Source: a phage. From it: 62,144 nt of DNA. The translations under genes and the position numbers were made by a program. Below are positions 334 through 4,910 of this stretch, one piece after another. The notes beneath the pieces are model-generated. The model did no database searches. It was not told the origin of the DNA and was given only the letters and a program-made list of their open reading frames with translations. How positions within the stretch are numbered: position 1 is the first letter of the stretch; the number at the start of each line of letters is the position of its first letter. The stretch lies in the sequence record PX021331.1; one strand, written 5' to 3'.

Positions 334-422
334 TGTGGTCACCAGAATCAACTTGCTAGCTATTTAAATCCGTCCTAGCTCCCTGCTATATTAGCTCTAC
401 GACAACAAAGGGGAGTAAAAGA

Positions 423-803
423 ATGGCCAGATTTACGAAGGATGTTTGGACGAGCCTACGCTCGCACTCTAAGCCGACGCGCACTATGTTAATCGTTGTG
501 CCGTCACGGTCGTATATGGTGGAGCTGTTGGCTCACATGTTCGACGATAAAGAGTCGACAGGTATGCGTCACCAAAGTATGTTCTGCGTTAAGGTTCAGT
601 TCCTTAATTTTAACGCCATTGTTATGGTGCAGAACTACCACGGCGAAGGCATGGTCCAGCGTGTCCACGAGATGACGATTGGGCGCTGCGATATTGACCT
701 TTGGCTGGTGGACGTTGTGAACGTTGGTGCTAACGACCGCCGCGCTTTGCAGCAGGTTATGTCGGCTCGGATGGGTACAGTCAACGCGCTGGAGTCCAAA
801 TGA
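423..803 (+). CDS. hypothetical protein
   Basis: 126-aa ORF; SD-like AAAGGGGAG upstream of ATG; no recognisable motif. Confidence 0.6.
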   Translation: MARFTKDVWTSLRSHSKPTRTMLIVVPSRSYMVELLAHMFDDKESTGMRHQSMFCVKVQFLNFNAIVMVQNYHGEGMVQRVHEMTIGRCDIDLWLVDVVNVGANDRRALQQVMSARMGTVNALESK

Positions 804-1138
804 AAGACATTAACTTGCCTAAACTGTACACCTCGCTCCGCGATACCCTTCTCCAGGCCGATTGGGTCACCACACATACGAATCCCGAGGACACGTTTGT
901 AGTTCTGGTGTCGCCTGACAATGTGCTGCGCTGCGTGTTGCACTATATGCCGGAGTGCTCCAACGTGTACCCTGACGGCTCCTGGACACTCAAGCTCAAC
1001 ACGGACGAAGGGACGTGGCAAGTCGAAACGGCCACCCGTCCGATCTGTAACGACACGACACTCTTTATGGCGGACTTCCGTCGTCTCACATCAATCAGTG
1101 TCATCCTCAAAGACCAAATCAGCAAGGATCCATTCTAA
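800..1138 (+). CDS. hypothetical protein
   Basis: 112-aa ORF; start overlaps upstream stop (ATGA coupling). Confidence 0.6.
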   Translation: MKDINLPKLYTSLRDTLLQADWVTTHTNPEDTFVVLVSPDNVLRCVLHYMPECSNVYPDGSWTLKLNTDEGTWQVETATRPICNDTTLFMADFRRLTSISVILKDQISKDPF

Positions 1139-1599
1139 TGCGTGCAATCGAACATCAGACACAACCTACGGGCTTGGCGTGCATCGCGACGTGCCTGGCA
1201 ATGCTCACCCGCCGTAAAGCGAAGTTCGTGGACGAGGAGTTCACTCCGAAGTACGTCCGTAATCAGGCGGACATCCCAATGTGGCTGGCAACTTACGGCA
1301 TCCGCTGCATCCCTCACCTGACTTCCGGGATCCACCAGTTGCATCAGGGAAAGTTATACCTCGCAACCGTACCGTCGCTGATGACTGCTGGGCTGTTCCA
1401 TCAGGTTATTATCGATACTCGCTTGGGAACCGTTGCGGTCTATGACCCTGCTGAGGGTTTCAGCAAGACAACGCAGTTCTACATCGATCCGGATCACAAC
1501 CGTCTGAAGATGGATCACCCGGATTACGATCGTTTGGCGTTCCCGCTGAAGAGCTGGATCATTGATTACGAGTTGGAGTATCTGGAAGATGGCGAATAG
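1138..1599 (+). CDS. C39-like (papain-fold) cysteine peptidase domain protein
   Basis: N-terminal HQTQPTGLACIATCLAMLT resembles the Gln/Cys motif of C39 peptidases; later HQVIID...VAVYDPAEG resembles the C39 His/Asp region. Start overlaps upstream stop. Confidence 0.5.
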   Translation: MRAIEHQTQPTGLACIATCLAMLTRRKAKFVDEEFTPKYVRNQADIPMWLATYGIRCIPHLTSGIHQLHQGKLYLATVPSLMTAGLFHQVIIDTRLGTVAVYDPAEGFSKTTQFYIDPDHNRLKMDHPDYDRLAFPLKSWIIDYELEYLEDGE

Positions 1600-1740
1600 T
1601 AGACCGGCGCACTTTACGTCGTATGAAGCGGCGTATAAATATGCAAAGGATCTCGCATTTCGCCAGGGTGCTGTACGCGCTGTGGGCTGTTTAAGCCGGG
1701 CGAGTGGCTCGTTGGTACTGTAAGGCAGCTAGGGGAAGAA

Positions 1741-1923
1741 ATGGGCCTGGAGCCGCTGGTGCGCGTGGGTACTGCGAGGCAGGTGCGCCGCACGCTGGAG
1801 GAGCGTAAGCAGATTTTCACCTACGTTAACAACACGGGAGACGTCAAGAAGACTGCTAAGAAGTTCGGCTGTTCGGAAAGCAACGTCTATCGAATCATTC
1901 AAGAAATGAGGAATAAGAAATGA
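1741..1923 (+). CDS. small helix-turn-helix DNA-binding protein
   Basis: 60 aa; C-terminal KKFGCSESNVYRIIQEM looks like an HTH; SD GGGGAAG before ATG. Confidence 0.55.
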   Translation: MGLEPLVRVGTARQVRRTLEERKQIFTYVNNTGDVKKTAKKFGCSESNVYRIIQEMRNKK

Positions 1924-2441
1924 CAGCTATTGCATGGGACGGTACTACTTTAGCAGTGGATCGAGCTACCTTCGGCGCAGACCAGATGATGGAGTGTTGT
2001 AAACTTCACATAATCTACAAGAAGGATACTCCGATGATGTATGCTTCTTGCGGTTCGACCTATAACATCAATCAGATTGTTCGCTGGTTTGAGAACGGGT
2101 GTGAGGGTAAGCCTGACATCGACAAGGAAGCGGATACGATCGGAGCGTCCTTTGGGATCATGGTTGATGGCTGGGGTACTGCGTGGACCGTGTTCGGCAA
2201 CGGGACGCTGGAACGCATTATACCGCCCTTTGCAGCGGATGGAGCTGCAACGCCTTTCCTGTACGGTGCGCTGGCGGCTGGTGCAAGTGCCGATAAAGCA
2301 GTACAGTTAGCGGTACAGATGCGCGGGGACGCGGGTATTGGTGTCGACGCCTTTGAATGGAAAGGTCTGTCGAGCATTGAACTCCGCATGGCTGCGATTG
2401 CCCACTTTAAAAAGTCAATCTTAAGAGGAGAACGATCTTGA
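1920..2441 (+). CDS. hypothetical protein
   Basis: 173-aa ORF; start overlaps upstream stop (ATGA). Confidence 0.6.
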   Translation: MTAIAWDGTTLAVDRATFGADQMMECCKLHIIYKKDTPMMYASCGSTYNINQIVRWFENGCEGKPDIDKEADTIGASFGIMVDGWGTAWTVFGNGTLERIIPPFAADGAATPFLYGALAAGASADKAVQLAVQMRGDAGIGVDAFEWKGLSSIELRMAAIAHFKKSILRGERS

Positions 2442-2833
2442 CAACATGTGATGGCGGTGCGTGTTTCGACAACGTGATACCGAACATCTTGTATCTGGCG
2501 CGGGCTATTAAGACGTGCCATTTCGAAGAGACGCCGCTTGGCGTACATGTGGTTATTAACGATGAATTGCACTTGTGTCAAAGCGAAGACCTTGCAATCG
2601 CAGTCTTAGACAGTAATACTAAGTGCAATGAAGAGTTATACGTGTATTGCGCGGAAACTGAAACCCTCGTTCTACATGGCATCGGTGTTGTCATGGGGAT
2701 CGCGGATTGTGCTTACCACATACGGGAGATCCTGGATGACCAGATTAAAGCTCGCGAGGCCGATCAAGCCAAGGGGCAAGGTAACGCGGACAACCCTCGT
2801 GACGGCTCTTTTAACCAGGCCTACGAAGGGTAA
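2438..2833 (+). CDS. hypothetical protein (TTG start)
   Basis: 131-aa ORF with no in-frame ATG near the 5' end; TTG preceded by AAGAGGAG; overlaps upstream stop. Confidence 0.45.
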   Translation: MTTCDGGACFDNVIPNILYLARAIKTCHFEETPLGVHVVINDELHLCQSEDLAIAVLDSNTKCNEELYVYCAETETLVLHGIGVVMGIADCAYHIREILDDQIKAREADQAKGQGNADNPRDGSFNQAYEG

Positions 2834-2846
2834 GAAGCGGAAGTTT

Positions 2847-3014
2847 ATGTGTCTCGGCGGGCCGTTTGATGGAAAGAAGATTGCCCTATGGGACGAAATG
2901 CCAGGTAACACTGGCACAATGGAATTCAGCATACCCAGCTTTAACAACGGTGAGAAAGGGATGTATAAACCGGATGCAGAGTTTGCTGATTCCGTCGTCT
3001 GGAGACCTGTATGA
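2847..3014 (+). CDS. small hypothetical protein (55 aa)
   Basis: Internal ATG of track ORF 2628..3014, chosen because it lies just after the upstream gene's stop; stop overlaps start of Rz-like gene. Confidence 0.3.
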   Translation: MCLGGPFDGKKIALWDEMPGNTGTMEFSIPSFNNGEKGMYKPDAEFADSVVWRPV

Positions 3015-3550
3015 ATTGGATCCCTGCATGGGTTCCAAAGTGGGTTATCAGTGCCCTACCATATCTGGTAGTGGCGCTGATTATCGCTTTGGGTGTCTGG
3101 AAGTATAACCACGACGTAGAGAAAGCCCGGACTGGAGGTTTCAATGACGGTGTCGCGTACCAAAAAGGCATTGAGGTCCAGGATACTCTACGCACACGAC
3201 AGGAGCGAGAAGATGAGAAGAAGCGAATTGAAGGGCAGGCGGCTGCTCGTGTTGCTGATGCTGATCGCGATCGTGCTCTTGCTTTGTCTCAGCTTGATGG
3301 GCTGCACAAAGAACTCGAGCGGATACGTGCAATCGGACAGCGCTATACCGGACCTCAGTCCGCTGGCACGTCAACCGGAGAGATCATCAATATGCTTGCC
3401 GACTTGTACGAAGCGAGCGAACGAGACTACAATGCAGCGGCAGCAGAAGCTGACAAGTATTACAACGCCGGACTCACCTGTGAAGTCCAATACGACTCCT
3501 TAAAGGCCAAATATGATGAAGCAAAAGGTCGCCAGACGACAAACCGATAA
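3011..3550 (+). CDS. Rz: i-spanin (Rz-like)
   Basis: N-terminal TM helix (ISALPYLVVALIIALGVW), long charged coiled-coil region, C-terminal ERDY-containing segment as in Rz-family spanins; a lipoprotein ORF is embedded in another frame. Confidence 0.6.
   Translation: MNWIPAWVPKWVISALPYLVVALIIALGVWKYNHDVEKARTGGFNDGVAYQKGIEVQDTLRTRQEREDEKKRIEGQAAARVADADRDRALALSQLDGLHKELERIRAIGQRYTGPQSAGTSTGEIINMLADLYEASERDYNAAAAEADKYYNAGLTCEVQYDSLKAKYDEAKGRQTTNR
3213..3503 (+). CDS. Rz1: o-spanin (Rz1-like outer-membrane lipoprotein), embedded in Rz
   Basis: Internal ATG of track ORF 3144..3503 preceded by AGGAGCGAG; signal peptide MRRSELKGRRLLVLLMLIAIVLLLCLSLMGC with lipobox-like LMGC; Pro-rich mature part; lies wholly inside 3011..3550. 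Confidence 0.45.
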   Translation: MRRSELKGRRLLVLLMLIAIVLLLCLSLMGCTKNSSGYVQSDSAIPDLSPLARQPERSSICLPTCTKRANETTMQRQQKLTSITTPDSPVKSNTTP

Positions 3551-3734
3551 AGAAATCCACGCCAACGCCACAAAGGTGGGGCCGGAGTGTGTTGAGCAGT
3601 ATGAGAAACACTTGAAGGTACTCACTATGATGCTGGAGGACGTGACCGATGAAGGTGGTGAAGCATTGGCTGGATTCATGTTTGCCTTTGCCAGTCTTGG
3701 TAATGAAATCGCACGGCGCAATAATATTAAGTAA
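3513..3734 (+). CDS. hypothetical small protein
   Basis: 73-aa ORF beginning inside the 3' end of the Rz-like gene; AAAGG upstream; followed by a terminator. Confidence 0.35.
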   Translation: MMKQKVARRQTDKEIHANATKVGPECVEQYEKHLKVLTMMLEDVTDEGGEALAGFMFAFASLGNEIARRNNIK

Positions 3735-3765
3735 CATTGCGCAAACAATTATCACGTCTTACCCT

Positions 3766-3794
3766 GCTCCTGCCTAATCAACAGGAGCTTTTTT
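3766..3794 (+). terminator. rho-independent terminator (stem GCTCCTG/CAGGAGC, T6)
   Basis: Inverted repeat followed directly by TTTTTT; the 3' arm also supplies the SD (AGGAG) for the next ATG at 3795. Confidence 0.5.
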
Positions 3795-4232
3795 ATGGCA
3801 ACTCAACCTCGCGGTATCCGCAACAACAACCCCGGCAATATTCGCTGGGGCGACGACTGGAAGGGACTTGTCCCTCAAGCCAAGAGAACGGATAAATCGT
3901 TCTGTCAATTTATTGAGATCAAATGGGGGATTCGCGCACTGGTGAAAGTGCTGTTAAACTACCGTAAGCGGCCGGGGATGCCAGGAGTTGGCAATTCAGG
4001 GATCGATACGGTGAGGGAAATCATCTCTCGTTGGGCTCCGCCTAATGAGAACAACACCGAAGCATATATCCAATCGGTCGCGAAAGCATGTGGTGTGAAG
4101 CCGGACGCCCCAATTGACCTCATGGATAAAAATCTTATGCTGGCAATGGTGAAAGCCATTATCTCGCACGAGAACGGGGTTCAGCCTTACACAGACGCAG
4201 TTCTGTTGAATGGCATTGGACTCGCATACTAA
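3795..4232 (+). CDS. hypothetical protein; positional candidate for endolysin
   Basis: 145-aa ORF with strong SD, between spanin and holin-like genes; no hydrolase motif I can name (N-terminal GIRNNNPGNIRWGDDW). Confidence 0.6.
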   Translation: MATQPRGIRNNNPGNIRWGDDWKGLVPQAKRTDKSFCQFIEIKWGIRALVKVLLNYRKRPGMPGVGNSGIDTVREIISRWAPPNENNTEAYIQSVAKACGVKPDAPIDLMDKNLMLAMVKAIISHENGVQPYTDAVLLNGIGLAY

Positions 4233-4247
4233 AAAGGAGCCACAAAG

Positions 4248-4586
4248 ATGGATCCAATTAAAGTTGACTGGGATTGGTTTAAGGTCGCAGTCTTTACGAT
4301 TATTGCCGTAGTAGGCGGCTGTCTGGGCTACACAGCGCGTAAGCTGGACGCAAAAGAGAAGTTTAGTCTTGGTGTCTTTTTCTTTGAGGGCATCTCTGCT
4401 GGCTTCTTTGGATTCCTTGTAGGAGTCATCGGCATGGAGCATAATGCGTCCTTAGGATGGGGCGGTTCTGCGATTGGCGTGTTATCCTGGTTCGGGTCCA
4501 GATCCATGGTGGCATTATTGAAACCGATCGTAGTCAAGCGCCTCGGTACTATCTTCGGAGTAAACACTGATGAGAAATCTTCGTGA
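4248..4586 (+). CDS. putative holin (three TM segments)
   Basis: 112 aa; three hydrophobic helices then a charged C-terminus (KPIVVKRLG...DEKSS); position in lysis block. Confidence 0.5.
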   Translation: MDPIKVDWDWFKVAVFTIIAVVGGCLGYTARKLDAKEKFSLGVFFFEGISAGFFGFLVGVIGMEHNASLGWGGSAIGVLSWFGSRSMVALLKPIVVKRLGTIFGVNTDEKSS

Positions 4587-4872
4587 TACCCGCGGATGGC
4601 TGCCTAGCCCGACTCTAATACTGCATTACGCCATGATTGCTTGTTTTCTGACAGCATTGAGTGGCGCATCAGTATACTATTTTCACGTGGAGAAGGCGAT
4701 GGCAGTCGTGGACGGTACTGCAAAACAGGTCGCAGGTATTGCAGAACGGTTGAAAGGGGAACTCCCTGACAGCCCGGAAGCAGAAGCTAAAGTCGTAAGA
4801 CTTCAAGTGAAGGCCGATCAATTGCAAAGTACCGCTCAGTCCGTAGCGCCAACGGTGCAAGCCGTCAACTGA
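4570..4872 (+). CDS. membrane-anchored protein (single N-terminal TM), lysis-associated by position
   Basis: 100 aa; TM segment LILHYAMIACFLTALSGASVYYF then helical soluble part; SD GGAG; overlaps end of holin candidate. Confidence 0.5.
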   Translation: MRNLRDTRGWLPSPTLILHYAMIACFLTALSGASVYYFHVEKAMAVVDGTAKQVAGIAERLKGELPDSPEAEAKVVRLQVKADQLQSTAQSVAPTVQAVN

Positions 4873-4878
4873 CCGCAA

Positions 4879-4910
4879 GCCCACCCATCTCATTCGGGGT
4901 GGGCTTTTTT
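4879..4910 (+). terminator. rho-independent terminator (stem GCCCACCC/GGGTGGGC, T6)
   Basis: 8-bp GC-rich inverted repeat followed by TTTTTTATT just after the stop at 4872. Confidence 0.65.

Follow-up and report, generated by a model that had tools for sequence, protein, structure and literature searches.

A free-standing C39-like cysteine peptidase recurs in virulent phages and probably acts inside the infected cell

We analyzed a 62,144-nucleotide stretch of phage DNA (sequence record PX021331.1, here called the window), which is a Queuovirinae-like siphovirus genome, and we find that a small gene at 1138..1599 on its + strand encodes a free-standing C39-like cysteine peptidase. An earlier note on this DNA had proposed a stand-alone C39-like peptidase at this place, and conservation, profile alignment and a fold model now support that claim. 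The protein belongs to phrog_4049, a sizeable and uncharacterised family that is a transporter-less, phage-borne and structurally outlying relative of the C39 peptidases. We propose, as a reading that we hold to be reasonably probable, that it is an active, soluble, cytoplasmic papain-fold endopeptidase that makes a limited, site-specific cut, most probably in a host protein during takeover or counter-defence.

The open reading frame (ORF) of 153 codons begins with ATG at 1138 and its stop codon ends at 1599. Its product matches the profile of phrog_4049, a family to which PHROG attaches no function, at E 4e-37, with its residues 3-148 covering positions 2-140 of the 145 in the profile. The N-terminus reads MRAIEHQTQ9PTGLAC15IATCLAMLT and a second motif region reads H88QVIIDTRLGTVAVYD103PAEG, and the protein thus presents the Gln-Cys-His-Asp order of clan CA (papain-fold) cysteine peptidases. 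The HQVIID...VAVYDPAEG segment singled out in the earlier note is there as quoted, with the invariant H88 and D103. The Gln/Cys motif that it described is also present, but its "Q-x5" notation was slightly off, the true spacing being Q9-x5-C15. The gene and its predicted catalytic codons are as follows:

1138..1599 (stop codon included), + strand: coding sequence of the free-standing C39-like cysteine peptidase, phrog_4049 (from the ORF list)
1162..1164, + strand: Gln9 codon; the residue is predicted to lie at the oxyanion hole and corresponds to LahT Gln21 (from conservation and the LahT alignment)
1180..1182, + strand: Cys15 codon; the residue is predicted to be the nucleophile, stands at the start of helix alpha1 and corresponds to LahT Cys27 (from conservation, model and alignment)
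1399..1401, + strand: His88 codon; the residue is predicted to be the general base, lies on a beta-strand and corresponds to LahT His101 (from conservation, model and alignment)
1444..1449, + strand: Asp103-Pro104 codons, predicted third triad residue, equivalent to LahT Asp117-Pro118 (from conservation and alignment)

These residues are conserved to an unusual degree. Among 184 relatives, 150 of which are representatives from a 50%-identity cluster search, and counting non-gap positions only, Gln9 is found in 179/180, Cys15 in 179/180, His88 in 184/184, and Asp103 and Pro104 in 183/183 each, the last two within a conserved D-P-x-x-G motif. Because these putative catalytic residues are nearly invariant and fall in register with LahT-type domains, the likeness of the window motifs to those of C39 peptidases exceeds chance. 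When 1.84 billion cluster representatives were searched exhaustively with a hidden Markov model (HMM), 685 relatives emerged at E<=1e-3. The best 150 of these span 98-283 residues and are therefore stand-alone proteins, and neither among them nor in the 153-residue window ORF did we find fusion to or association with an ATP-binding cassette (ABC) exporter.

The window protein by itself has no Pfam match even at E<=10, and finds nothing relevant in NCBIfam or among Protein Data Bank (PDB) sequences. A profile of 34 close homologues (alignment A1) searched against the PDB, together with a member-by-member Pfam scan, likewise gave no C39 match. The HMM comparison with Peptidase_C39 that the earlier note had suggested is therefore negative for the single sequence but positive for some of its diverse relatives: of 143 diverse family members (alignment A2), 5 match Pfam Peptidase_C39 at E<=1e-3 (best 2.4e-6) and 41 at the looser E<=1, with further Pfam contacts to C58 in ten members and to C39_2 in seven. 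The gathering threshold of this Pfam family (PF03412) is 22 bits; two listed phage family members score 15.3-15.6 bits, under the cut-off, and the window protein also falls short of it. Against PDB sequences the A2 profile gives non-significant matches only (E 0.14-1.2), in the correct register, and on LahT it places Gln, Cys, His and Asp-Pro all in register. An adequate hhalign comparison of A2 to C39 domains required a template of 121 sequences made up of the LahT family and PCAT1, and with this template the match has 94.7% probability (E 6.2e-8, 97 columns) and pairs Q9/C15/H88/D103 with Gln21/Cys27/His101/Asp117. With the lone LahT sequence the probability is 69%, and with a two-sequence template it is 85.8% with the C-terminal part out of register. 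We conclude from these alignments that homology to bona fide C39 domains is detectable, with the predicted catalytic residues in register.

An AlphaFold2 model built from A1 (predicted local distance difference test, pLDDT, 92.9; predicted template modelling score, pTM, 0.89) points in the same direction. In the model Cys15 begins helix 15-24, His88 lies on strand 87-93 and Asp103 comes right after strand 100-102, a layout that matches the published arrangement of LahT, from which the roles of Gln21, Cys27, His101 and Asp117 are also taken (PMC6363468). The modeled cysteine at a helix start and histidine on an antiparallel sheet are the hallmarks of the clan CA fold, so that the structure prediction called for in the earlier note yields a papain-like layout. 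That note was prepared to give up its reading if there were no papain-fold profile match and no Cys/His dyad in the predicted structure; we find such a match and a predicted Cys/His dyad, and the "C39-like" reading therefore stands.

The kinship is a distant one. Foldseek ranks PCAT1 and LahT at the top of the PDB with E only ~1e-2, and in structure comparisons the phage model scores only 10.0, as compared with 14.5 for the HlyB domain against LahT and 16.3 for Cpe1 against ComA. The window protein is not a core C39 member. Because its model scores below HlyB and Cpe1 and its sequence falls below the Pfam threshold, we view it as one of a divergent family that is sister to C39 and lies within the C39 neighbourhood of clan CA, a placement that draws on sequence and model together. 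A divergent domain of this kind could in principle be catalytically dead and only bind a partner, as does the C39-like domain of HlyB. We consider this extremely unlikely: domains of the CLD type have lost the catalytic cysteine, whereas the window protein keeps Cys15, and none of Cys, His, Asp and Gln is missing, each being near invariant in the 184 sequences, which would not be expected of a non-catalytic domain. Since all catalytic residues are conserved, we predict an active enzyme and not a CLD-type binding module.

The earlier note had regarded a free-standing C39 domain as unusual in a phage, a view that the distribution of the family does not bear out. Using tblastn, we find homologues in 171 of 50,697 phage records, among them Queuovirinae, Ackermannviridae (Kuttervirus, Aglimvirinae), Stephanstirmvirinae and Vequintavirinae as well as Samunavirus, Knuthellervirus, Enhodamvirus phiVC8 and a jumbo Rivsvirus. 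The phage groups that keep the family number eight or more and are unrelated to one another. Given this number of records and their spread over many groups, the stand-alone C39-like gene recurs among virulent phages and is no curiosity of one phage. The records nearest to the window, Escherichia phage Ec1-ASingh and Klebsiella phage vB_Kpn_K9PH25C2, share ~80% nucleotide identity with part of its first 6 kb. In phage records the homologues are mostly annotated as hypothetical, and annotation pipelines occasionally give the family a C39 label. Our literature search for a characterised phage C39 peptidase found no experimental study, only a label for phrog_4049 in an annotation table, under the category moron/host takeover (PMC9409062). 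A search of 185,579 species genomes from bacteria and archaea, with patterns suited only to close relatives, matched just two contigs of ~1 kb or less, contig88 of Sulfoacidibacillus thermotolerans (1073 bp) and Contig_130 of Dyella japonica (577 bp). The homologues on both small contigs are 45-47% identical and the hosts are taxonomically odd; most likely these contigs are phage DNA contaminating the assemblies.

What might a C39-like peptidase do in a phage? The closest known systems are the AMS/PCAT bacteriocin exporters (PCAT1, LahT, ComA; PF03412), in which the peptidase domain is fused to an ABC exporter and cleaves behind Gly-Gly, Gly-Ala or Gly-Ser, whereas here it is free-standing. 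A regular-expression search for double-glycine leaders over all window ORFs gave 2 loose matches as compared with ~2.4 in shuffled sequences, although a divergent leader would escape this search. The sole strict double-glycine match is spurious, lying antisense inside a gene of 1046 residues and having no PHROG match. At the junctions of N-terminally extended family members there is no consistent Gly-Gly motif, and the fusion partners of the longer members (MazG-like, YunG-like and zinc-ribbon pieces, some of them possibly gene-calling artefacts) are uninformative. Because there is neither an ABC-transporter module nor a leader-peptide partner, a limited, site-specific intracellular cut is the most likely activity. 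The protein also carries no signal sequence.

The best functional precedent for such a cut comes from Cpe1, a type VI secretion toxin, and StbD-CT, a toxin of CdiA. Both are free C39 toxins that reach the cytoplasm and there cleave GyrB and ParE within LHAGGKF, between Gly101 and Gly102; that free C39 peptidases can be precise intracellular topoisomerase II toxins was shown only in 2025-2026. The carrier and immunity gene of these toxins were not found here. We detected no toxin carrier domain (PAAR, Rhs, VgrG or CdiA) in the family and no immunity gene next to the peptidase, which is followed by genes for a transcription activator and an HslV-like peptidase. Other free-standing neighbours of C39, namely C39_2 (PF13529), FapD, YopT/AvrPphB (C58) and AvrRpt2 (C70), give weaker matches than PF03412, and they are effectors that are secreted, or enzymes of the periplasm, whose targets differ.

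Based on these comparisons, we propose a mechanism in which Cys15, at the N-terminus of helix alpha1, would be the nucleophile and His88, on the neighbouring strand, the general base, with Asp103 orienting the histidine and Gln9 at the oxyanion-hole position. During infection the enzyme would cut one or a few intracellular proteins, probably beside small residues such as Gly-Gly, and its most probable target would be a host protein, in the manner of Cpe1 and StbD-CT on GyrB and ParE. Because this is an accessory-type gene of many virulent phages that occurs mostly in early or DNA-metabolism contexts, we infer that its product acts on a host protein more probably than on the cell wall or on a component of the virion.

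In Ackermannviridae, for instance, the C39-like gene lies between the genes for the large and medium subunits of topoisomerase II. In Escherichia phage AV101 (3079..6768) it overlaps both subunit genes, and in Salmonella phage SeF6a (1580..5266) it has the same placement. The large subunit of AV101 has LYAGSNF where E. coli GyrB has LHAGGKF. The position in this operon and the altered sequence at the corresponding place in the phage's topoisomerase make it attractive to suppose that the peptidase cuts the ATP-lid of GyrB/ParE at LHAG/GKF and halts host chromosome maintenance, leaving phages with their own topoisomerase II unaffected. The case is weak, especially for the window, in that the genome annotation of the closest annotated relative includes no topoisomerase (nor an ABC transporter, nor an annotated prohead protease), and we rate this specific target as improbable. 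More broadly, the protein may be a phage "clippase" for host takeover or counter-defence that disables a host protein at a Gly-Gly site, an idea that we regard as possible but doubtful. Its targets could be GyrB/ParE or the Gly-Gly-terminated ubiquitin-like conjugates of bacterial immune systems. A GyrB/ParE target would explain why the Ackermannviridae gene stands inside the phage's own topoisomerase II operon, whose product has an ATP-lid without HAGGK. We think it very unlikely that the papain triad serves isopeptide or non-proteolytic chemistry instead, whether by deamidating glutamine, by transferring acyl groups or by taking apart the ubiquitin-like conjugates of bacterial defence in the way of a deubiquitinase-like clippase or a deconjugase. 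The matches behind this suggestion are weaker than those to C39 peptidases, our literature search turned up no described phage protease against ubiquitin-like systems, and we see no genomic link to any defence system.

Elsewhere the surroundings of the gene vary. In Samunavirus, Stephanstirmvirinae and Vequintavirinae it lies within arrays of small hypothetical genes, in the jumbo phage between replication and recombination genes, in phiVC8 upstream of a helicase gene and in PMBT14 after the lysis genes. In Klebsiella phage vB_KpM_FBKp34 a Lar restriction-alleviation domain protein (3616..3855) is encoded two genes downstream of the homologue, which sits in an early, anti-restriction-type gene array. 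Among the loci compared there is no partner gene that is conserved across lineages.

In the window, as in its relatives, the peptidase gene occupies fourth place in a block of + strand genes that begins after a divergent intergenic region. Upstream of it are two ORFs of unknown function, the nearer of which is probably coupled to it, and downstream follow genes for a late transcriptional activator, an HslV-family peptidase, a spanin, an endolysin, a holin and the terminase. The features of this region are as follows:

363..392, + strand: sigma-70-like promoter match TTTAAA-18-TATATT, with TG, ahead of the block's first gene (consensus match only)
800..1138, + strand: ORF of 112 residues, phrog_21152, function unknown, overlapping the peptidase start by 1 nucleotide
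1124..1128, + strand: ribosome-binding site AAGGA, 9 nucleotides 5' of the peptidase ATG (direct sequence reading)
1920..2441, + strand: HslV-family peptidase (proteasome-beta-like, N-terminal nucleophile type), phrog_1040 at E 2e-16
4884..4903, + strand: first + strand intrinsic-terminator-like site 3' of the peptidase, after the lysis cassette

The peptidase ATG shares bases with the stop codon of the upstream ORF (TAATG, 1136..1140, + strand), which suggests that the two genes are translationally coupled. The phrog_21152 ORF lies directly upstream of the peptidase in 13 of 27 loci, and its product might serve the enzyme as a partner or act on it as a regulator or inhibitor. The promoter match at 363..392 and the position of the first terminator-like site at 4884..4903 suggest that 423..4872 is possibly one transcription unit that joins the peptidase gene to the lysis genes. 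The hairpin at 4884..4903 is strong, with an 8-bp stem followed by a T-run, and lies between the last ORF of the lysis region and the small terminase gene. The earlier note had called this block "early", a timing that is not established, as there is a sigma-70-like promoter ahead but no terminator-like site before the lysis cassette.

That two putative peptidase genes stand so close together in one operon is unusual. In 17 of 27 loci, nearly all of which belong to Queuovirinae, the HslV-like gene closely follows the C39-like gene. We considered whether the C39-like peptidase removes a propeptide from the HslV-like protein and rejected this idea: all HslV-like proteins start M-T-(A/V)-I (MTAI in the window, with no propeptide), so that Thr1 would be exposed by removal of Met alone. 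Functional coupling of the two genes is also unsupported, since the HslV-like gene hardly occurs outside Queuovirinae, whereas the C39-like gene is also found elsewhere without it; inherited synteny explains the pairing best. The gene for the "late transcriptional activator" (phrog_532) is split in the window into ORFs at 1589..1723 and 1741..1923 on the + strand. Its relatives have one intact gene of 114 residues, the alignment to which shows a 7-nucleotide gap and three 3-nucleotide indels, so that the split is a frameshift, which may be real or a sequencing error.

Another candidate role, which the earlier note had raised, is a part in lysis as an endopeptidase or amidase of peptidoglycan, in the manner of PeiW, PeiR or the CHAP/NlpC-P60 lysins. 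The pseudomurein endoisopeptidases PeiW, PeiP and PeiR (MEROPS C71), from phages and prophages of methanogens, carry N-terminal wall-binding repeats and cut an isopeptide bond of the archaeal wall. By comparison, the window protein is a bare 153-residue domain, and the phages that encode it infect Gram-negative bacteria and already possess a complete lysis cassette. It matches no Pfam family and has no additional domain, and a scan of ten longer family members found no wall-binding Pfam domain. Its hydrophobic N-terminal stretch is, in the model, the catalytic helix alpha1 of a confidently folded globular domain. With the lysis cassette already complete, and the gene located far from lysis genes in most other lineages, we give a lysis role only a slight probability.

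Maturation of a phage protein, be it the scaffold, the major head protein or some other protein of the virion structure or of replication, would fit some features of the locus. Portal, scaffold and major head genes are present in the closest annotated relative, which, as described above, has no annotated prohead protease, and the peptidase gene is on the strand of the late genes and in their long direction of transcription. However, the head module is several kilobases and many genes away, other lineages hold the gene in early-type arrays or replication modules, and the HslV-like protein conserved downstream has no propeptide to remove. Phages of unrelated virion architecture have the gene in common, so that no shared structural substrate is evident. 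We therefore view maturation as unlikely, and retain as our preferred reading an endopeptidase that would make a limited cut in a host protein.

Proteolysis is a little-explored possible route by which virulent phages may remodel their hosts. Cleavage of GyrB/ParE, or of another host protein, is a testable hypothesis in tractable phages of E. coli, Salmonella and Klebsiella, several of which are considered for therapy. If true, a topoisomerase-cutting phage enzyme would extend the principle of C39 toxins from bacterial warfare to viral takeover, and a clippase acting on either of its candidate targets would be the first phage example of the mechanism. Even if the protein is an accessory housekeeping protease, phrog_4049, now listed as "unknown function", would gain a firm functional class.
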